From: Candidatus Polarisedimenticolia bacterium
GTDB lineage: Bacteria; Acidobacteriota; Polarisedimenticolia; JACPZX01; DASXTC01
Direction: 5' to 3'
DNA: 64,000 nt
Assembly (NCBI GenBank): GCA_036505635.1
Contig: DASXTC010000010.1
Span: 29,107-93,106, forward strand
Numbering within the stretch: position 1 is the stretch's first letter; every line of letters starts with the position of its first letter. Positions 5,156 through 14,098 of this stretch are shown here, piece after piece. Below the pieces are notes generated by a model that worked only from the letters and a program-made list of their open reading frames with translations, was not told the DNA's origin and did no database searches. The position numbers and the translations under genes were made by a program.

Positions 5156-7134
5156 CGAACCGCCCGGCGCAGCGCGAGCACGAGGCCCGTCAGCGCGAGG
5201 AGCAGCCACAGCTCCGGCTCCGCCCCGGACTCGTACGCTCCCCCGATCGCGAGCGCGGACACTCCCTGGGGAAGCGGCAGGGGCTGATCCACGTCCTTCG
5301 CCTCGCCCCGCGTGTTTCGCGCCTCCTCGATGACCGCGACGAATGAGGTGTACCTGGTGAGCAGCGAGTAGCCCAGACCGAGCGCGGTGATCTGGCTCTC
5401 GACCTCGGAGTCCACGGGTCCGAAAGCCAGATCCGAGAGTCGCGCGATCCTCGCGCGAGCCCACAGAAGGCGGAGAGCGCCGCTCTCGACGGCCGGTGCG
5501 CTCCCGGCCACGCGGAAGGTGCGGCTGTATCGACCGGCGACGCCGTTGCCCGACACCTCGATCTCCCCGTCGGCACTGCCGCGCCACTTTCCGAAGAGGA
5601 TGAGGGGACGCTGGGCGAACAGATCGGGAAGGGCCGAGGGCTCGACCTCGTAGGCGTCAAGCCCTCTGTAGACGACCCGGAGGTCCGTCAGGAGAGGGGA
5701 CTCGACGTAGGCGCGGAACCGCTCCGCCGCTTCCCGGGCCTCATCGGGCCTGGTCACGACGAACGGCTCGCCCAGGCCCGCCCTCGCGATCCCATCGACG
5801 AGATGGCGATTGACCGCCGAGCCGATGCCGAAACTGAAGAAGTTGGTCTGACTCAGATTCTCCTGGATGATCTCGAAGACCTCCCGATCGCCGTCAACGA
5901 AGCCATCGGTGATGACGACGATGGTGCGCGAGAAGCCCTCGTCCCGCGGCAGGCTCAGAGCTCTTTTCAGAGCGGGAACGAGCTCCGTCCCGCCACCGCC
6001 GCGCTGCTCCCCGATCATCTGGAGCGCCCTCCCGACGTTCTCCTCGGTCGCCGGCTGGGACACGTCCGCCATCACGCGCGAGCCGCCGGCGAAGAGAACG
6101 ACGTTGAACAGATCGGTGTCGCGCAGGTGGCGGATCAGATCGGCCACAAGGAACTTGCCCGTCTCCAGAGGAAACCCATCCATCGATCCGGAGACATCGA
6201 GGATGAAGACGTATTCACGCGGCGAGACCTCCGCCGCCTTGAATCGCTCGGGGGGCTGGACCATCAGGAGGAAGAAGTTCTCGGTCTCACCCTTCTCCAA
6301 CAGGAGCCCGCTCTGGATCTGCTCACCGGCAAGCCGGTAATTCAGGATGAAGTCCCGGTCCCCGCCGACCTCCGTACGGTCCTTGAGCGTGACCGTGGCC
6401 ACGTCGCCGGCGTCGTACGCGACGTCCACGGGATGGGACGCGCACCGGACGTCCTGGAGCGGCATACCCGCGGAAAGCGTGACGACGATGTCAAAGGTGC
6501 CGGGGTTGTGCCCGCCAGGATGCAGATAGGGGCACTTCACCCATCGGGTCGCCTCGGTCGCTGATGCCTCCCGTTGACTCGAATACCGGGGCCCGACCAC
6601 CGTCGGGTAGAGAAACTCGTAAATCCCCTCCGTGGGGATCAGAAGCTCGGAGTATCGCAGCTCCACCTCGACCCGATCCCTCGGCATGATGTTGGCGACG
6701 TTCATGGTGAAGACATTGGGGCGCTGCTGCTCCAGAAGAGAGGCGCTCTTGCCCTCAGCTTTGGCCGTCTCGAACTGCACCCGTGCCTTGCGTCGCTCCT
6801 CGATCCTTGCCGTGACGACCTGGTCGCCAACCCGGATCCTCATGCCGTGAACCGCGGCGCGCGTCGAGGCGGGAAAGACATAACGGGCGTTGATCGGCTC
6901 CGTGCCCTCGTTCGTGTAGGTCTGCGTGACGAGGACCACGGCGATGACGCCGTTGACGTTCGCTACGACCTGGGTCGACTTCAACGGGAAGAGCTCCGCC
7001 TCCGACTCCTTGCCCAGAACGACGAAGTAGGGAGAGAGGGTCCGGCCCGGGTCCTCCTGGCCGCGGGCGGGGCTCGCTGACAGGATGAGAAGGAGTGTCA
7101 GGAGAAACAGGGGCCGCATGCACGTCCGATTCAT
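5152..7134 (-). CDS. Secreted VIT + vWA domain protein with a C-terminal exosortase-type sorting signal
   Basis: ATG 7134 after GGAGG; signal peptide; VIT (TQTYTN, YVFP, FTMNVANI); vWA MIDAS DVSGSM and ITDG; C-terminus AEPELWLLLALTGLVLALRRAVR. Confidence 0.9.
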   Translation of the reverse strand: MNRTCMRPLFLLTLLLILSASPARGQEDPGRTLSPYFVVLGKESEAELFPLKSTQVVANVNGVIAVVLVTQTYTNEGTEPINARYVFPASTRAAVHGMRIRVGDQVVTARIEERRKARVQFETAKAEGKSASLLEQQRPNVFTMNVANIMPRDRVEVELRYSELLIPTEGIYEFLYPTVVGPRYSSQREASATEATRWVKCPYLHPGGHNPGTFDIVVTLSAGMPLQDVRCASHPVDVAYDAGDVATVTLKDRTEVGGDRDFILNYRLAGEQIQSGLLLEKGETENFFLLMVQPPERFKAAEVSPREYVFILDVSGSMDGFPLETGKFLVADLIRHLRDTDLFNVVLFAGGSRVMADVSQPATEENVGRALQMIGEQRGGGGTELVPALKRALSLPRDEGFSRTIVVITDGFVDGDREVFEIIQENLSQTNFFSFGIGSAVNRHLVDGIARAGLGEPFVVTRPDEAREAAERFRAYVESPLLTDLRVVYRGLDAYEVEPSALPDLFAQRPLILFGKWRGSADGEIEVSGNGVAGRYSRTFRVAGSAPAVESGALRLLWARARIARLSDLAFGPVDSEVESQITALGLGYSLLTRYTSFVAVIEEARNTRGEAKDVDQPLPLPQGVSALAIGGAYESGAEPELWLLLALTGLVLALRRAVR

Positions 7135-7180
7135 GTCCGTCACCTCCAGCACCGGGAAATCCGGCGGTCGATGAGACGCT

Positions 7181-7216
7181 ACATGTCGGGCATGAGGAGA
7201 CCTCGAGGGCCACGTG
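7181..7216 (-). promoter_or_regulatory. Partial third copy of the 35-bp upstream motif (candidate ECF promoter) before the VIT operon
   Basis: Plus strand acatg...cctcgagggccacgtg versus acatg...ccgcgaggggccacgcg in the other two copies; 47 nt from the start codon; spacer 2 nt longer. Confidence 0.45.
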
Positions 7217-7299
7217 CGAAGTTCATGAATTCTCTGCGAGGAGTGGTTTGGCCCGTCGCGGCCGGGCCCGGGGAGGTGACCGGGCGCCGGCGATTCAGC

Positions 7300-8409
7300 T
7301 CACGGGCAGGCCGCGAGGGCCTGCGAAGCCACGCAGGCGCTGCCCCCTGGGGGGCGGCTCGTCCCGTCGGAAGCCGTACCGTAAGACCCTTCGTCATTCG
7401 CGTTGAGCGGCACGACCAGGTAGTACCTGTTGCCGCTCGAAGGGGTTATGTCTTCTCTCAGGTCAGCGCCATCGTCCGAGCAGTCGAGCGCGACGTGACT
7501 GTACCAGTCTCCGATCACACCCTCGTAGATCGCGTAGTCCTCCGCGCCGGCCGAACAGCTCTGAGACCAGGAGATCCTCAATTTCCCCCTCACCGGAGAA
7601 TGGGTCACGTCGATCGTGGGCGGCACGCTCCCCGGGTGAGGCAGGAATGCCAACGCGTCGATGGCGCTGCCCGCGGGCCACCCGGGGTCGAGGTAGAACG
7701 TGGTGAAGCTCCTGCCGTCCCACGAGACGAGCTGGCCGGGCTGGAAGGTCTGGCTTCCGAGTGTGGTCGGAGCGTCGAAGGTCAGGATCGTGAGCGATCC
7801 GCGCTCGTCGGCCCCCGTGAGATTGGCAGAGGGCGGGATCGGGGGGACCGCGGCCGAGGCGTCGAAGTAGAGGTTGAAGGATGCTCCGTCGAACCGGACC
7901 AGGTCGGCGGGCTCGTAGGTCGACGGCCCGATCGTCGTCGGCACATCGAAGCTGACGACGAGATCACCGGCGTCACCGCCGTCCAGGAAGACGGCGTCCA
8001 GGTTCGAGCTGTCCGGCACGCCATGCGCCGAGCCATCGAAGTACATGGTGCAGGCCGCTCCATCGTAGCGGGCGACATCGATTGGCTCGAGCGGAGTTCC
8101 ACCCAGGATGACCGGCCGCTCGACGGAGACGAGCCAGTCCCCAGTGTCCATTCGGTGCAACGCGTCGAACACCGTGTCGGCAGGGAGCAGGAGCGCGGAC
8201 CAATAGATCCCGGAGTCGTTGCGGATGAGCTGCCAGGGGAGGAACGTGGTCCCGGCGGCGCCCAGATCGGTCGGGACGTCGGTCGTGAGGTAGAAGGAAG
8301 CCGCGCCGGCCGGCGATCCAGACATCGCGAGAATGGCCAGAACGACGAGAGCAGCCGCGGCCGGCGTGACACGCATGAGTACCATGGGCTCCTTGGCATG
8401 GCGTCTCAT
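7300..8409 (-). CDS. Secreted protein with four ~55-aa repeats and a C-terminal Fn3-like module
   Basis: ATG 8409 overlaps the upstream stop (ATGA); signal peptide; repeats of the form DVPTxLG...P.DL..(Y/F)DG..F.LYFD; ends YYLVVPLNANDEGSYG...RPPGGSAC. Confidence 0.8.
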   Translation of the reverse strand: MRRHAKEPMVLMRVTPAAAALVVLAILAMSGSPAGAASFYLTTDVPTDLGAAGTTFLPWQLIRNDSGIYWSALLLPADTVFDALHRMDTGDWLVSVERPVILGGTPLEPIDVARYDGAACTMYFDGSAHGVPDSSNLDAVFLDGGDAGDLVVSFDVPTTIGPSTYEPADLVRFDGASFNLYFDASAAVPPIPPSANLTGADERGSLTILTFDAPTTLGSQTFQPGQLVSWDGRSFTTFYLDPGWPAGSAIDALAFLPHPGSVPPTIDVTHSPVRGKLRISWSQSCSAGAEDYAIYEGVIGDWYSHVALDCSDDGADLREDITPSSGNRYYLVVPLNANDEGSYGTASDGTSRPPGGSACVASQALAACP

Positions 8410-9530
8410 GGGATATTCCCGCCGCCGTCTACGGCGCCGGTGACTCCGGGGCCGTCCACGGCGCCGCGCAAGTTGCCGCGCAGGATGTTGCCACGGTAGA
8501 CGTGCCCGGTTGTCTCGAACCAGATCCCGGCCCCCGCGTTGGCGGTGAGCTTGCCGTCGTCGATGATGACGTTGGTGCCGCCGGCGAAGATCCCGTGGCC
8601 GCCACCGCCGTTGATGAAGATTCCCTGGATGGCGACGTTGCTTCCCATCGAGTGGATGCCGTCGCCGCCGCAGCCGGTCAGAGTGTTGTCCTGGATGACG
8701 ACGTCCTGGCTGTCGCTGTCCACCTCGATGCACGCTCCGCCCGTGGTACCGGGACCATGGAACTTGCCGCCCGCGATGACGATCCCGCGGGAGGAGACCA
8801 CGCCAACGCAGGGGGTAATACCCGCAACCGGAGGCATACCGTTGACGATGACAATCCCGAGCGCCTCGCTGCCGTCCGCGCCATTGAAGTTGATCGCCGG
8901 CGAGACGGCAGTGGGATCCGGCGGTTGGTGCTCGAAGGCGAGGTCCCTGATGGAGCAGGTCACCCCCGTGCAGTGAATCCCGCCGCCCGCCCGGATATCG
9001 GCGTTGCGGATAATCGCCTTGGGGGGGATCGGCGGGGGCGGCGACCCCGCGACGTTTCCCAGCAGCTCGAAGCCGACCAGGGTGCCGATGATGATGATCC
9101 CCTGCGCCGAGACCTGCCCGAAGCCGGCGGCGTGCACTGCCGCCTGTGCCTGTCCGGAGAGGATAAGGTCCGACAGCGAGAGGGGTTGCTGGGGGTCGGG
9201 TGGTTGGTATTGGATCCCGTGGAGCCCCCCCTGGATCTTGCCATTGACGATGATAATCCCCTTCGAGGACCCCGAGACGCCGCCGATCACGATGGCGGCC
9301 TGGGTTGCGCCGGGCTGGTTGATCGTATGACCGTTGAGGTCGAGCGTGACGCCGTCGGCCTGGATCGAGACGGCGGGGCCGGCCGTCGCCGAGATGTCCC
9401 TCGTAAGAACGTAGTGACCCGGCTGGGTGATGACGGTAGGCATCCATAGCGGGATCTTCCCCTCGGCGGCGCCCAGCGGCGCGCCGGCCAGAGTCGCCAG
9501 AAGCATCATGAGAATCAAGCGCTTTCGCAT
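8406..9530 (-). CDS. Secreted right-handed parallel beta-helix (pectin lyase-like) protein
   Basis: ATG 9530 after GGAGG; signal peptide; VITQPGHYVLTRDI, DGVTLDLNGHTI, repeated NxIxG/GGxGI turns. Confidence 0.85.
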   Translation of the reverse strand: MRKRLILMMLLATLAGAPLGAAEGKIPLWMPTVITQPGHYVLTRDISATAGPAVSIQADGVTLDLNGHTINQPGATQAAIVIGGVSGSSKGIIIVNGKIQGGLHGIQYQPPDPQQPLSLSDLILSGQAQAAVHAAGFGQVSAQGIIIIGTLVGFELLGNVAGSPPPPIPPKAIIRNADIRAGGGIHCTGVTCSIRDLAFEHQPPDPTAVSPAINFNGADGSEALGIVIVNGMPPVAGITPCVGVVSSRGIVIAGGKFHGPGTTGGACIEVDSDSQDVVIQDNTLTGCGGDGIHSMGSNVAIQGIFINGGGGHGIFAGGTNVIIDDGKLTANAGAGIWFETTGHVYRGNILRGNLRGAVDGPGVTGAVDGGGNIP

Positions 9531-9575
9531 GTAGCTACCTCCTGCTGGTGGGGGGGCGGGGCCCCCTCTCGATCT

Positions 9576-9610
9576 CACATGCGCCGGCCGGTTCCGCGAG
9601 GGGCCATGCG
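9576..9610 (-). promoter_or_regulatory. 35-bp motif copy A (candidate ECF promoter)
   Basis: cacatgcgccggccggttccgcgaggggccatgcg; 31/35 identical to 10525-10559; 46 nt upstream of the beta-helix gene. Confidence 0.65.
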
Positions 9611-9623
9611 CTCCCCGGGCCGG

Positions 9624-10472
9624 TCAGAAGCCCTGCGCGCACAGCTCGGCCCGTTCATAGGCCAGGTGCGCCGCCTGGGCGACCGGAGCCAGTGCCAGGC
9701 CTGCATCCGCCACCTCGGCGCAGCGGACGTCGCCGCTCAGCGGTGGAGTGTTGAAGGCCACGCTGAAGGCGAGGCCCGCCTGGAACGACCGCCACCACCC
9801 CAGGAAGCTGCCCAGAGCCGCCAGGCCCGGCGCTTCCTGAGACATCGAGTCGGCGGCGAACTGGAGCCAGCCGCGGGCCTGCCCTGTCAAGCTCAGGGCG
9901 TCGAAAAAGCTTGATGAATTCGAGAGAAGCTGCGGGTTGCAGAAGAGAGCCGGGTCGTTGAAGTACATGTCCGTCTCGATCTGGAGCTGAATGAGTATGG
10001 CGTCGACTTCGAAGATCTTGTCGAGGGCCTTGTTGATCCAGTAGACGGCGTTGTCGCAGTTGAGAAGCCGAGCTCCAGGCCAATGGCCGCGCCGGATGTC
10101 CGACCCGAGCCGAGGCTGGTCCAGGCTCGTGAGCATGGGGAGAAACCTGTCGAGCTCCTCCCTCGTCATCCACGCAAGCAGCGCGCGCACGACATCCTGG
10201 CGGAGCTGGTCGAGCTTGCGCTGCGCGACCTCGATGTCCACGGGCTCCACCCGCTCCGGCAGCAGCCGCGCGCCGCGCTCGGCGTACCGGTCGAGGGCTT
10301 CGAGAACGAGCGGTGCGTTGCAGTGAGCGAGGTTCAAGTTGTCGTCCGCGTCGATGAGCGGATCACTGCTGCTGTAGCCGCACGTCGAGAGCTGGCGCGA
10401 ACCAGGCGGGTCGTCCCCGCGTGCGGTCGAAGCGGCCAGGAAGAGAACGGCGACAAGCGCGAAGTGTTTCAT
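9624..10472 (-). CDS. Hypothetical secreted, Cys-containing protein
   Basis: MKHFALVAVLFLAASTARG signal peptide; GAGGAGG upstream; six Cys; no family recognised. Confidence 0.75.
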   Translation of the reverse strand: MKHFALVAVLFLAASTARGDDPPGSRQLSTCGYSSSDPLIDADDNLNLAHCNAPLVLEALDRYAERGARLLPERVEPVDIEVAQRKLDQLRQDVVRALLAWMTREELDRFLPMLTSLDQPRLGSDIRRGHWPGARLLNCDNAVYWINKALDKIFEVDAILIQLQIETDMYFNDPALFCNPQLLSNSSSFFDALSLTGQARGWLQFAADSMSQEAPGLAALGSFLGWWRSFQAGLAFSVAFNTPPLSGDVRCAEVADAGLALAPVAQAAHLAYERAELCAQGF

Positions 10473-10524
10473 CATGATGAGAATCCCTCCTCGATTGTGT
10501 TGGGGCCAGGCCATGCTCTGCTTC

Positions 10525-10559
10525 CACATGCGCCAGACGGTACCGCGAGGGGCCACGCG
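10525..10559 (-). promoter_or_regulatory. 35-bp motif copy B (candidate ECF promoter)
   Basis: cacatgcgccagacggtaccgcgaggggccacgcg; about 50 nt upstream of the 9624-10472 gene, in the divergent gap before the ECF sigma. Confidence 0.65.
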
Positions 10560-10590
10560 AACTTGTCAGGCCGGTGCCGGGAGGCGTAGC

Positions 10591-11214
10591 ATGGGAAAAC
10601 TGATGCCCCCATCGCCGGGAGCCGCCGTGCCGGAACCGAAGCTCAGGGAAACGGTCACCGAGTCGCTCGAACCGCTGGGACGGGCGGGGTCGGTTCTGGT
10701 GGACGAGCTGTTGCCGCTCGTCTACGACGAGCTGCGTGCGATGGCCCATCGGCAGCTCGCGGGGGAACGCCGCGTCGTCACGCTGGACACCACGGGCCTG
10801 GTCCACGAAGCCTATCTGAGGCTCGTGGACGAAACCCGCGTCCCTCAGGGGAACCGCGCCTACTTCTTCGGCGCGGCGGCGCGAGCCATGCGCCGGGTGC
10901 TCGTGGACGCCGCCCGCCGCCGGAACAGGCTCAAGCGCGGAGGGGGCGTCGAACCGCTGGATCTCGACGGGATCCAGGTCGAGGCGGACAAGTTCACCGC
11001 CGAGATCCTCGATCTGGAGGAAGCGCTCGAGAACCTCGCGCGCCTCTACCCCCGCCAGGCCCGCGTCGTGGAGTGCCGCTTCTTCGGTGGCCTCGACGTG
11101 GAGGAGACGGCCGCGGCTCTCGATTTGGCGCCGCGCACGGTCAAGCGCGATTGGGCGCTCGCTCGCGCCTGGCTCTATCGCGCCCTTCTCACCGGCCGAT
11201 CCGCGATCGAGTGA
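10591..11214 (+). CDS. ECF sigma factor, TIGR02999 (kinase-associated) type
   Basis: LLPLVYDELRAMAHRQL, TLDTTGLVHEAYLRL, YFFGAAARAMRRVLVDAARRR, VECRFFGGL, TVKRDWALARAWL. Confidence 0.92.
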   Translation: MGKLMPPSPGAAVPEPKLRETVTESLEPLGRAGSVLVDELLPLVYDELRAMAHRQLAGERRVVTLDTTGLVHEAYLRLVDETRVPQGNRAYFFGAAARAMRRVLVDAARRRNRLKRGGGVEPLDLDGIQVEADKFTAEILDLEEALENLARLYPRQARVVECRFFGGLDVEETAAALDLAPRTVKRDWALARAWLYRALLTGRSAIE

Positions 11215-11221
11215 CTCGACG

Positions 11222-14098
11222 ATGAGTGAACTGCCGCTCCAAGACCCAGGCCCGGATCCGGATCGGGTGGCCGAGCTGTTCGCCGAGGCTCTCGAGCGCC
11301 CACCGGAAGAACGGCGAGCTTTTCTGGACTCGCGCTGCTCGGGATCCGCGGACCTGCGGGCGGAGATCGACTCGCTGATTGCCGCCCACGAAGCCCGCGA
11401 GAGGGCCGGCACCTTCCTCGGCCAGATCGATCGCGAGCGGAGCGCCGTGCTCCTGCAAGAAGAGCCGGAGTTGGAGGCCGCCGGGCGGCGGGTAGGGCCC
11501 TACCGCCTGCTGCGCGAGCTGGGGCGCGGCGGAATGGGGGTCGTCTACCTCGCCGAGCGGGCCGAAGGGGGCTTCCAACAGAATGTCGCGATCAAGCTGC
11601 TCAAGCGCGGCATGGACAGCGACGCGATTCTGAAGCGGTTCCTGCGCGAGCGCCAGATCCTGGCGGGCCTGGAACATCTCAACGTCGCGCGGCTGCTCGA
11701 CGGTGGCGTCACGGATGAGGGGCAGCCCTGGTTCGCGATGGAGCATGTCGACGGTGTGCCCATCACGGAGTATTGCCGGGAGCGACAGCTCGACCTGCGC
11801 CAGCGTCTGCGGCTCTTCGAGGAGTCCTGCCGCGCCGTGCAGTACGCGCACGGCAAGCTCATCGTCCACCGCGATCTGAAGCCCTCCAACATGCTGGTCA
11901 CCGCCGAGGGCCAGCTCAAGCTGCTCGATTTCGGCGTCGCCAAGCTGCTCGGCGGCCCGCTCGCCGGCGACGAACGATCCGTCACGCTCACGCAGACCGG
12001 GATCCACCCTCTGACACCGGAGTACGCGGCCCCGGAGCAGGTGCGCGGAGAGCCCGTGACGACGGCCACCGACATCTACGCCCTGGGACTCGTGCTGTAC
12101 GAGCTGCTGACCGGGCGCCGGCCGTACGGTGGCGAAGGGTCGAGCCGGCAGGATCTGGCACGGGCGGCCTGCGAGACGGAGCCGCCGCCTCCTTCCGAGG
12201 CCTCAGATGTGCCGCCTCGAGCCGCTCGATCGCTGAAGGGCGATCTCGACGCGGTGGTGCTCAAGGCGCTGCGCAAGGAGCCGCAGCGGCGCTATGCCTC
12301 GGCCGAGGCGCTCGCGCGGGACATCGGTCGCTTTCTCGCGGGTCAGCCTGTGGAGGCTCGCCCCGACAGCGTCGCATATCGTGCGGGCCGATTCGTCGGC
12401 CGTCACAAGGTGGGGGTCGGCGCGGTCACGGCGGCGGCACTGTCTCTGCTCGCCGGTCTGATCGGCACCTCCTGGCAGGCGGTGGTGGCTGCGCGGGAGC
12501 GCGACCGCGCGCGGCTGGAAGCGGAGCGAGCGGAGCGCGTCAAGGAGTTCCTCATCGACCTCTTCAGGGCCTCCGACCCGGCGGAGTCGAAGGGACGGGA
12601 GGTGACCGCGAAGGAGCTGCTGGAACGGGGCACGGAACGGATCGAAAAGGAGCTCTCCAGCCAGCCGGCCGTGCAGGCCGAGCTGCTCTACACGATGGGC
12701 GTCAGCTTCTGGTCGCTCGGCCGGCTCGACCGTGCGCGTACGGTCGAAGAACGATCGATCGAGATCGCTCGGCAGGCGTACGGCCCGGAGCATCCCGAGG
12801 TCGCCCTGGGGCTGGATGCGCTGGGGGGGATCCTCTATGCCTCGGGCCAGCTCGAGGCGGCCGAGGAGACGCGACGGCAGGCGCTCGCGATGCGGCGGCG
12901 GCTCTTTCCCGCAGACAGCCCCGAAGTGGCGGAGAGCATGGCCAACCTCGGGACGGTGCTGGTCCGCCGTGCGAAGCTGGACGAAGCCGAGCCACTGCTG
13001 CGTGAAGCGCTGGAGATTCGCCAGAAGCGGTTGGGGCCAGAGCACCCGGACACGGCCCGATCAATCATGAACCTCGCCAACGTGGTTCAGGCCAAGGGGG
13101 ACTATGCGAGCGCGGCGCGGCTGCACGCTCAGGCGGTTTCCCTGCGCCGCAAGCTCCGGGGCGATCAGCACCCCGAGGTGGCCACCGCGCTCGGCAGTCT
13201 GGGCGCCGCTCTGGCCGCGACGGGTGACCTTCAGGGCGCCGAGGCGGCGCACCGCGAGGCCCTGAGCATCCGCAGGAAGGTTCTGGGCGCCGAGCATCCT
13301 GCGGTAGCGCTGAACATGCTCCATCTCGCGTCGGTTCTCCACCTCGAGGGCGATCTGGAGGGCGCCGAGTCGATGTACAGGGAGGCGCTCGCGCTGGATC
13401 GGAAGCTCCTCGGCGAGTCGCATTCCGACGTCGCCATCGCGCTCACGAACCTGGCCCGGCTGCTGACCGACAGAGCGCGATTCGAGGAGGCGATGCCGCT
13501 CTTCGACCAGGCGGTCGCGCTGCACTCCCGGGTTACCGGCGCCGATCATCCCTTCCTGGCGACGACACTCGAAAACAAGGCCCACGCGCTCATCGTCCAG
13601 GGCCGGTCCCGCGAGGCGCTGCCTCTCCTTGAGAGGTGCCTGGTCATCTTCCGGGCCCGCTACGGCCCGGCGCATCCGCAGACGGCCTCCGCTCTCGAGG
13701 ATGTCGCGGAAGCCAGAGCGGACCTTGGGGAGCTCGCGGAGGCGGAGGGAGTCTTTCGCGAGGCCCTCGACCTGCAGCGCCGCGCCCGGCAGGAGCCCCA
13801 CCGCGACACCGTCGTGACGCTCCTGGGTCTGGGCCAGGTCCTCGTCCGTCAAGGTCGGGCGGCGGAAGCGGAGCCTCCTCTGCGCGAGGCGCTCGACCAG
13901 TCCGAGAAGGTGCTGCCCTCGACCCACTGGCGACAGGGCGATATCCAGAGCGTGCTGGGCGACTGCCTCCGGCGGCTGGGGAAGATCGATGAAGCGAGAT
14001 CGCTTCTCCGTTCCGGTCACGACCGGCTGCGGGAGAGCCTGGGCGACACGCACCCGGTGACCGCCAGGGCGCGCCGCCGCCTGGCGGAGCTTCCGTGA
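11222..14098 (+). CDS. Membrane Hanks-type Ser/Thr protein kinase with extracytoplasmic TPR repeats
   Basis: LGRGGMGVVY, AIK, HRDLKPSN, DFG, TPEYAAPEQ; one TM (VGVGAVTAAALSLLAGL); roughly ten 42-aa repeats with G.EHP..A. Confidence 0.95.
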   Translation: MSELPLQDPGPDPDRVAELFAEALERPPEERRAFLDSRCSGSADLRAEIDSLIAAHEARERAGTFLGQIDRERSAVLLQEEPELEAAGRRVGPYRLLRELGRGGMGVVYLAERAEGGFQQNVAIKLLKRGMDSDAILKRFLRERQILAGLEHLNVARLLDGGVTDEGQPWFAMEHVDGVPITEYCRERQLDLRQRLRLFEESCRAVQYAHGKLIVHRDLKPSNMLVTAEGQLKLLDFGVAKLLGGPLAGDERSVTLTQTGIHPLTPEYAAPEQVRGEPVTTATDIYALGLVLYELLTGRRPYGGEGSSRQDLARAACETEPPPPSEASDVPPRAARSLKGDLDAVVLKALRKEPQRRYASAEALARDIGRFLAGQPVEARPDSVAYRAGRFVGRHKVGVGAVTAAALSLLAGLIGTSWQAVVAARERDRARLEAERAERVKEFLIDLFRASDPAESKGREVTAKELLERGTERIEKELSSQPAVQAELLYTMGVSFWSLGRLDRARTVEERSIEIARQAYGPEHPEVALGLDALGGILYASGQLEAAEETRRQALAMRRRLFPADSPEVAESMANLGTVLVRRAKLDEAEPLLREALEIRQKRLGPEHPDTARSIMNLANVVQAKGDYASAARLHAQAVSLRRKLRGDQHPEVATALGSLGAALAATGDLQGAEAAHREALSIRRKVLGAEHPAVALNMLHLASVLHLEGDLEGAESMYREALALDRKLLGESHSDVAIALTNLARLLTDRARFEEAMPLFDQAVALHSRVTGADHPFLATTLENKAHALIVQGRSREALPLLERCLVIFRARYGPAHPQTASALEDVAEARADLGELAEAEGVFREALDLQRRARQEPHRDTVVTLLGLGQVLVRQGRAAEAEPPLREALDQSEKVLPSTHWRQGDIQSVLGDCLRRLGKIDEARSLLRSGHDRLRESLGDTHPVTARARRRLAELP

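Follow-up and report, generated by a model that had tools for sequence, protein, structure and literature searches.

The window analysed here, a 64,000-nucleotide stretch of DNA from a Candidatus Polarisedimenticolia bacterium, contains a divergent gap between a gene for an ECF sigma factor, followed directly by a kinase gene, and a set of genes for secreted proteins. ECF sigma factors linked to a kinase occur widely in Acidobacteriota, Planctomycetes and related phyla, and to our knowledge very few of them have known targets, because their own genes are not self-regulated and the usual way of finding the promoter fails. The locus thus raises the question of which promoter such a sigma factor recognizes and which genes it controls. 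An earlier note on this DNA had proposed a bipartite TGGCCC/GCATGT promoter, present in three copies, read by the kinase-associated sigma factor and placed before genes for secreted proteins. As set out below, this candidate promoter recurs at 15 sites in 12 loci; the wider regulon that the note had drawn from the third copy, including the VIT-xrtK-creBC operon, is not supported.

Two copies of an element upstream of secreted-protein genes

The two clear copies of the element and the genes downstream of them are as follows.

10525..10559, minus strand: promoter B, with the −35 block TGGCCCC at 10549-10555 and the −10 block CGCATGT at 10526-10532, for the gene of the 283-aa secreted protein
9624..10475, minus strand: 283-aa secreted protein that has a signal peptide, six Cys residues and no known domain, the target of promoter B
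9576..9610, minus strand: promoter A, with the −35 block TGGCCCC at 9600-9606 and the −10 block CGCATGT at 9577-9583, for the β-helix and 361-aa genes
8406..9530, minus strand: secreted right-handed β-helix protein (374 aa), whose gene is the first downstream of promoter A
7300..8385, minus strand: 361-aa secreted protein lacking any known domain, whose gene is the second downstream of promoter A

The match of 31 of 35 positions between the two copies, as first noted from the letters alone, is real, with no such match in 100 shuffles. Copy A lies 46 nt upstream of the leftward ATG of the β-helix gene at 9530, and copy B lies 50 nt upstream of the leftward ATG of the 283-aa protein gene at 10475, within the divergent gap shared with the sigma gene. 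Transcription is predicted to start at around 9568-9572 from promoter A and at around 10517-10521 from promoter B. Homologues of the 283-aa protein were found neither in 60 relatives nor in the genome-contig collection, and only four protein clusters in a large database contain it. A C-terminal domain common to the 361-aa protein and the FG-GAP targets described below was considered and is not supported.

The 3.7 Mb genome contains exactly three instances of the pattern TGGCCCC-N17-GCATGT: copies A and B and a site at C3:27065-27094. All three sites are intergenic and oriented towards a start codon 22-50 nt away. With only three occurrences in the genome, the element is far beyond chance expectation and is not a scattered repeat; the REP-like scatter irrespective of gene starts that the earlier note had named as counter-evidence was not seen. 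The third site lies on another contig, in a paralogous module in which secreted-protein genes likewise face a sigma–kinase pair. The two modules are 82% identical in the sigma factor, 70% in the secreted protein, 67% in the 361-aa protein and 69% in the kinase; the paralogue of the β-helix protein is 57% identical to the window protein and matches PF13229. The DNA-recognition regions of the two sigma–kinase pairs are near-identical, whereas their TPR sensors have diverged to 65% identity. A third TIGR02999 sigma gene of this genome, on contig C75, belongs to a cluster of co-directional genes that lacks the motif.

Conservation beside related sigma genes

The motif scan suggested by the earlier note, extended over the genome and over orthologous sigma loci, found the three own-genome sites and, at identical spacing, the element beside TIGR02999 sigma genes of 67-85% identity at ten further loci (L005, L006/L007, L008, L009, G004:C6, L036, L037, L038, L039 and L050) in other uncultured Acidobacteriota. 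Every sigma gene of 67-85% identity with upstream DNA to inspect carries the element alongside (12 loci), and the element is absent beside the sigma genes of 52-59% identity that were examined. At 60% identity or more, homologues of the sigma factor amount to about 3,000 proteins. Three sites lie away from a sigma gene: copy A of the window; a second site at 2484-2512 of the orthologous contig L005, which is equivalent to promoter A and has an unrelated spacer; and a site on contig C68 of genome G004, upstream of a paralogue (55% identical) of the sigma-adjacent FG-GAP protein. The resulting set comprises 15 sites in 12 loci, including the three own-genome sites; these sites are not fully independent, since orthologous intergenic regions make up many of the loci. 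Among 401 genomes of the phylum and 119 of the class, close orthologues of the sigma factor were found in G004 only, and a scan of the genome-contig collection with a specific DNA pattern gave no matches.

Across the 15 sites, TGGCCC-N17-CGCA.G is invariant (11 invariant columns), and the spacer is near random. Compared in pairs, the sites are 98% identical in the −35 block and 83% in the −10 block, against 39% in the spacer, where 28% is expected from base composition. This preservation of two blocks at exact spacing, while the spacer sequence diverges, supports the reading as a promoter. For cross-validation, a matrix was built from 11 sites, all of them outside this genome. With this matrix no other of the 7.4 million positions scores as high as the three own-genome sites (36.1, 30.9 and 27.3 bits, of which promoter B scores 30.9 bits and promoter A 27.3 bits), and the next-best position, at 20.8 bits, lies inside a gene.

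The genes downstream of the element vary by locus and include those for β-helix proteins, an FG-GAP protein (1180 aa), a Dicty_CTDC protein, a 535-aa protein together with an S8 peptidase, and a HisKA_3 protein together with a C25 peptidase. Because these genes are unrelated among loci, the element tracks the sigma clade and not the target gene. In keeping with this, a homologue of the 283-aa protein with 50% identity, which lies behind a two-component system in place of a sigma factor, lacks the motif.

The sigma–kinase operon and its own promoter

The facing operon consists of the following features.

10563..10592, plus strand: sigma-70-type promoter TTGTCA-N18-TAGCAT of the sigma–kinase operon, the only sigma-70-like match in 7000-10800
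10627..11214, plus strand: ECF sigma factor of 195 aa, matching the TIGR02999 and PF07638 profiles
11222..14098, plus strand: Hanks-type Ser/Thr kinase of 958 aa with Pkinase and TPR domains

The family assignment made in the earlier note for the sigma gene that shares its gap with copy B was borne out, with 192 bits on TIGR02999 (cut-off 126) and an E-value of 4e-52 on PF07638; judged from its orthologues, the gene probably starts with the GTG at 10627. Region 2.2 of the protein carries DTTG, preceding LVHEAYL, at the position occupied in other sigma factors by an acidic motif. Among 12 orthologous sigma factors the TT pair of this motif is invariant and the first Asp is kept in 11. Region 4.2 (PRTVKRDW..ARAWL) is invariant across the same 12 proteins, matching the invariant −35 block. 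The kinase gene begins 8 nt past the sigma stop codon, and its product has one membrane helix (around residues 397-417) and, facing outwards, a TPR array of around 540 residues. No anti-sigma gene is adjacent to the sigma gene; the neighbours on the other side encode the secreted proteins and a P-type ATPase.

Typical, although not all, ECF sigma factors are autoregulated, with their motif before their own operon. Here, the element never lies upstream of the sigma factor's own gene, either in the window or in the orthologous gaps, and it points away from that gene. The TTGTCA −35 box and that of promoter B are arranged back to back, 7 bp apart, and the TTGTCA and TAGCAT boxes are also present in C3, L005, L006, L008, L009, L010 and L036. 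Since the sigma gene has a conserved sigma-70-type promoter of its own, back to back with the element, the sigma factor is not autoregulated, which fits a sigma factor that is activated by phosphorylation, or otherwise controlled after translation.

The proposed third copy

The earlier note had placed a third, partial copy upstream of the VIT-xrtK-creBC operon.

7181..7216, minus strand: copy C, preceding the VIT/VWA gene and not considered a genuine site

The positions of the three copies, 46, 50 and 47 nt before leftward starts, hold as described, but the third copy is not a true site. It does contain GTGGCCC, TCGAGG and CATGT at a distance of 47 nt from the VIT start (7134), as might a weaker functional promoter through which the sigma factor also controlled VIT-xrtK-creBC; moreover, the stretch from the 361-aa gene to the VIT gene shows no evident terminator, which makes read-through from promoter A possible. 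Against such a promoter, the spacer exceeds by 2 nt the spacing that is otherwise invariant in all 15 true sites, and the −10 block reads CGACATGT, where the true sites have GCGCATGT, so that three of eight −10 positions differ. At fixed spacing copy C scores −5.9 bits, and with free spacing it scores 7.1 bits, a value reached by 2,003 genome positions. In aligned regions upstream of the VIT orthologues of three genomes (G004, G030 and G002) its blocks are not kept and a different box is shared instead; no such element accompanies the orthologous VIT operon of G004, a genome that has the sigma orthologue and two genuine sites. We therefore regard a functional copy C as quite improbable, and judge these letters to be a chance resemblance or a decayed relic. 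As the third copy fails and the element is absent upstream of the orthologous VIT operons, CreBC as a second regulatory tier, which the earlier note had considered possible, is not supported either. With copy C rejected, the regulon in this genome would comprise three promoters and no wider block.

Alternative readings of the element

Conservation by itself cannot identify the protein that binds an element, and the present one lies close to the −35 box of the sigma gene, where a conventional activator or repressor could also bind. Such a binding site is nevertheless unlikely: the element has neither dyad nor direct-repeat symmetry; its two dissimilar blocks at a strict 17-nt spacing are typical of −35/−10 recognition; and the sigma factor and the kinase are the sole constant neighbours among the loci, with no other regulator gene common to them. 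The spacers of copies A and B, which share 13 of 17 bases, well above other pairs of sites, suggest a recent duplication or gene conversion within this genome, and could be taken to mean that the element is a mobile, REP-like sequence or a local duplication without function. This is very unlikely, given that the genome holds three copies only, each before a gene, that the 15 sites across organisms keep just the two blocks, and that a hairpin is unsupported, the fold being no better than in shuffles (z-scores of +0.3 to +1.9).

A conserved stem, formed either in single-stranded DNA or in a transcript, as in a leader RNA element, would draw on the minimum free-energy folds of both window copies, in which the bases 5′ of TGGCCCC and its first bases pair with the GGCGCATGTG side. 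However, paired cells amount to 68.1%, a value reached by 111 of 500 shuffles, compared with 66.7% in the shuffles, and there is no covariation signal; no Rfam family matches at threshold, and the distance from the element to the start codon varies over the loci from about 17 to about 190 nt. This reading is hardly credible. The element was also compared with sigma-54 promoters, which have GG and GC dinucleotides 10 nt apart (TGGCAC-N5-TTGC). At the expected GC position the sites read TA, AA, GA or other unconserved bases, and the conserved second block lies 17 nt away; the sigma-54 candidate was rejected.

Proposed mechanism

The conserved two-block element with its fixed spacing, its orientation towards downstream genes, its linkage to one sigma clade and its rarity in the genome are best explained if the adjacent ECF43-like TIGR02999 sigma factor has TGGCCCC-N17-GCATGT as its target promoter, a reading to which we assign a probability of about 0.8. 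From sequence comparison we infer that the sigma factor itself reads the element, where transcription starts and that a phosphorylation step intervenes. ECF43 sigma factors are activated by phosphorylation of Thr in region 2.2 by the adjacent kinase (PMC8999054, PMC13147305). In the proposed scheme, the sigma–kinase operon would be transcribed constitutively from TTGTCA-N18-TAGCAT, the TPR domain of the membrane Ser/Thr kinase would sense something outside the cell, and the kinase would then phosphorylate Thr in the DTTG motif of region 2.2, allowing the sigma factor to bind core RNA polymerase. The holoenzyme would begin transcription a few bases past the CGCATGT block, thereby switching on the 283-aa protein (promoter B), the β-helix and 361-aa proteins (promoter A) and, on C3, the three genes of the paralogous operon. 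Because one acidic residue is retained (the D of DTTG), strict dependence on phosphorylation is uncertain.

Tentatively, and with somewhat less than even confidence, the sigma factor, kinase and promoter may together form a portable cassette that has captured unrelated secreted and surface genes by lineage; in this genome two pairs would converge on one set of three promoters, so that either of two outside signals would switch on the same secreted proteins. Independently of the cassette, TGGCCC-N17-CGCA.G provides a concrete cross-genome consensus for one sigma clade of uncultured bacteria. The predicted minimal regulon consists of secreted proteins of unknown function, and the system is directly testable in a laboratory host. 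An arrangement in which the regulator has a constitutive housekeeping promoter that stands back to back with the promoter under regulation is a design that fits control by phosphorylation.

Comparison with known systems

As in canonical ECF promoters of the RpoE and SigW type (GGAAC-N16/17-CGTC), the element has two short blocks at a rigid distance of about 17 nt, a −10 block that opens with CG (CGCA here, CGTC there) and a position a short distance upstream of the regulated gene. Most ECF promoters carry AAC in the −35 block, whereas that of the element lacks AAC and is all G/C save for the first T; its −10 block is extended (GGCGCATGT), and it does not precede the sigma factor's own gene, which has a housekeeping-type promoter. 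A limited literature search found no published ECF43 promoter consensus for comparison, and the assignment of the present sigma factor to group ECF43 is provisional.

The closest known systems are EcfP–PknT of Vibrio parahaemolyticus and EcfK–PknS of Xanthomonas citri, of group ECF43, in which an ECF sigma factor likewise adjoins a membrane Hanks-type Ser/Thr kinase (PMC8999054, PMC13147305). In both, as in the window, no anti-sigma gene is adjacent, and the sigma factor serves a small set of envelope or secreted functions, which are predicted in the present case. In the known pairs, Thr residues replace the acidic motif of region 2.2 that contacts RNA polymerase (STTA or QTTA); the DTTG of the window sigma factor has the Thr pair and keeps one acidic residue. 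The window system also differs in that its kinase sensor is a long TPR array, and in its predicted targets, which are β-helix, FG-GAP and secreted proteins without known domains, whereas the EcfP and EcfK systems control polymyxin-resistance genes or a type VI secretion system. The element is thus a new promoter motif within an already known kind of system.

The two-block element in its own genome

The element TGGCCCC-N17-GCATGT is present in the window as copies A and B, the latter in the divergent gap opposite a TIGR02999 ECF sigma gene (192 bits; cut-off 126) that is followed by a Ser/Thr kinase gene.

9576–9610, minus strand: copy A; 46 nt separate its end from the start codon (ATG, 9530) of a secreted beta-helix protein
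9624–10475, minus strand: gene of a 283-aa secreted protein with no Pfam or NCBIfam match
10525–10559, minus strand: copy B; 50 nt separate its end from the start codon (ATG, 10475) of the 283-aa protein
10563–10592, plus strand: sigma-70-type promoter TTGTCA-N18-TAGCAT of the sigma–kinase operon, the only sigma-70-like match in 7000–10800

On the minus strand the copies read CGC(A/G)TGGCCCCTCGCGG(A/T)ACCG(G/T)C(C/T)GGCGCATGTG. The earlier note's observation that they agree at 31 of 35 bases and lie 46–50 nt before leftward starts was confirmed, and none of 100 shuffles matched this agreement. The spacers of A and B have 13 of 17 bases in common (about 39% in other site pairs) and the flanks beyond the 35 nt are unrelated; the spacer likeness points to recent duplication of the promoter, or to gene conversion, inside this genome.

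A pattern scan of the whole genome (3.7 Mb, 85 contigs, 67.8% G+C), of which the window is C10:29107–93106, found exactly three occurrences: A, B and C3:27065–27094 on another contig. With a position matrix these score 42–44 bits and the next best position 16, which rules out a scattered repeat; the REP-like distribution that the earlier note had named as contrary to its proposal was not seen in the motif scan that it suggested. When the matrix was built from 11 foreign sites only, the three sites still ranked 1–3 among 7.4 million positions (36.1, 30.9 and 27.3 bits), and the subsequent matches, at 20.8 bits and lower, are inside genes. The element was absent beside the genome's third TIGR02999 sigma.

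The C3 site belongs to a second module.

Contig C3 (locus L001, G000:C3:17000–36999), about 6917–13646: complete paralogous copy with 367-aa gene, beta-helix gene, 284-aa gene, promoter, sigma and kinase

Compared with the window, its secreted 284-aa, beta-helix and 367-aa proteins are 70, 57 and 67% identical, and its sigma and kinase 82 and 69%. The C3 module has a single promoter because only 35 nt part its first two target genes, whereas the window module has the extra promoter A inside a 93-nt gap. As the DNA-recognition regions of the two sigmas are near-identical, cross-talk between the two kinase–sigma pairs would be likely.

The element in related loci

Public records of close sigma homologs bear the labels Thermoanaerobaculia or Polarisedimenticolia, both Acidobacteriota. 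Homologs of 67–85% identity were traced to contigs, and all such loci with enough upstream DNA, beside orthologous sigma–kinase pairs where the earlier note proposed to look, carry TGGCCCC, 17 bases and GCA(T/G)G directed toward the divergent gene (L006/L007, L008, L009, G004:C6, L036, L037, L038, L039 and L050). The divergent genes vary from locus to locus: a beta-helix gene with a gene of about 350 aa, a 1180-aa FG-GAP protein, a 1134-aa Dicty_CTDC protein, a 535-aa protein with an S8 peptidase, a 400-aa protein, and a HisKA_3 protein with a C25 peptidase. The element was absent beside the sigmas of 52–59% identity that were examined.

In genome G004, a second genuine site on another contig (G004:C68), distant from any sigma gene, lies in front of a paralog that is 55% identical to the FG-GAP protein next to the sigma; the remaining matches in this genome are inside genes. 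The two FG-GAP target genes (L034 and L035) also have in common a 15-nt leader, CCGGATCCTGCCCCG, between promoter and start codon.

The 283-aa protein is very rare: 60 relatives have no homolog, and a set of 5.8 billion proteins contains only four clusters of it. A 66% identical homolog (L005) also faces a TIGR02999 sigma and has two copies of the element, one in the divergent gap and one ahead of the next gene, both with the window spacing and unrelated spacer sequences. A 50% identical homolog (L004) lies behind a HisKA_3/GerE two-component system, not a sigma, and the element is absent from this locus; this looks like a swap of regulator.

Promoter reading and proposed working

Among 15 aligned sites the invariant columns are T5-G-G-C-C-C10, C28-G-C-A31 and G33. 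Pairwise identity, taken on the first 14 sites, is 98% in the -35 block, 83% in the -10 block and 39% in the spacer, against 28% expected from base composition. Sigma-70-family proteins characteristically read promoters built of two dissimilar blocks, kept at a rigid distance (here 17 nt) and facing a start codon close by; the element is most likely a promoter read by the adjacent sigma, with putative binding partner and start sites. The -35/-10 assignment and its link to the TIGR02999 sigma, proposed in the earlier note, are supported by the fixed spacing in 15 sites and by the clade linkage: both blocks occur only with one sigma clade, in which regions 4.2 and 2 are nearly invariant. A sigma-54 promoter was rejected, as its spacing rule does not hold in the 15 sites. 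The element has no internal symmetry, it is not predicted to fold better than shuffled sequences, one possible stem shows no covariation (paired cells 68.1% versus 66.7% in shuffles), and no Rfam family matched at threshold.

The TTGTCA and TAGCAT boxes of the sigma gene's own promoter also occur in the C3 paralog and in most of the orthologous loci (L005, L006, L008, L009, L010 and L036). In the window the -35 box of this promoter and the -35 block of promoter B are 7 bp apart in a back-to-back arrangement, and its -10 box is overlapped by the annotated sigma ATG at 10591; translation probably begins at the GTG at 10627 instead.

The window sigma has DTTG at the place of the usual acidic, RNA polymerase-contacting patch, and the kinase has one membrane helix and a TPR array, about 540 residues long, that faces outward. 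In ECF43 sigmas (EcfP and EcfK), the adjacent kinase phosphorylates a Thr in the corresponding position and thereby activates the sigma (PMC8999054, PMC13147305, PMC8103513). In the likely scheme, an inactive sigma would be made constitutively, the kinase would then activate it, presumably by phosphorylation, and the activated sigma would fire two or three promoters in each genome.

The VIT-xrtK-creBC operon

7181–7216, minus strand: proposed third copy, containing GTGGCCC and CATGT
7214–7229, minus strand: TTCAy-N4-TTCGC box, TTCATGAACTTCGCAC, upstream of the VIT/VWA-xrtK-creBC operon

The earlier note's third copy did not hold up as a true site. The distance between its blocks exceeds that of all 15 true sites by 2 nt, and its -10 block has CGACATGT where true sites have GCGCATGT. 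Its score is -5.9 bits when the spacing is fixed and 7.1 bits when the spacing may vary, the latter a value attained 2,003 times in the genome. The element is absent upstream of 60–62% identical VIT orthologs in G004, G030 and G002, of which G004 does carry a sigma ortholog, and the blocks described for the third copy are not kept in the aligned VIT upstream regions. Membership of VIT-xrtK-creBC in the sigma regulon, which the earlier note had suggested, is therefore not demonstrated. Read-through from promoter A is conceivable, since the 165-nt gap between its transcription unit and VIT has no evident terminator. What is conserved instead is the TTCAy-N4-TTCGC box, in three of four VIT upstream sequences (window, G030 and G004); in G002 the box is present just as a looser form, TCTCAC…CCTCAC, that is spaced differently. 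The box resembles, with shorter spacing, the CreB 'cre tag' direct repeat, which hints that the operon may be controlled by its own response regulator.

Comparison with known systems

The window system resembles ECF43 sigma–kinase pairs in its family model and kinase adjacency, and may belong to that group; its DTTG motif offers the Thr residues, but the sigma keeps one acidic residue there. The element has the architecture of ECF promoters, but its -35 block is without AAC, and unlike in typical ECF systems the sigma is not autoregulated. No published promoter consensus for this clade was found in the literature searched. In conclusion, the finding is not surprising in kind, as this kind of regulator is already known; the promoter motif and the predicted small regulon are new, and constitute a solid, testable prediction.
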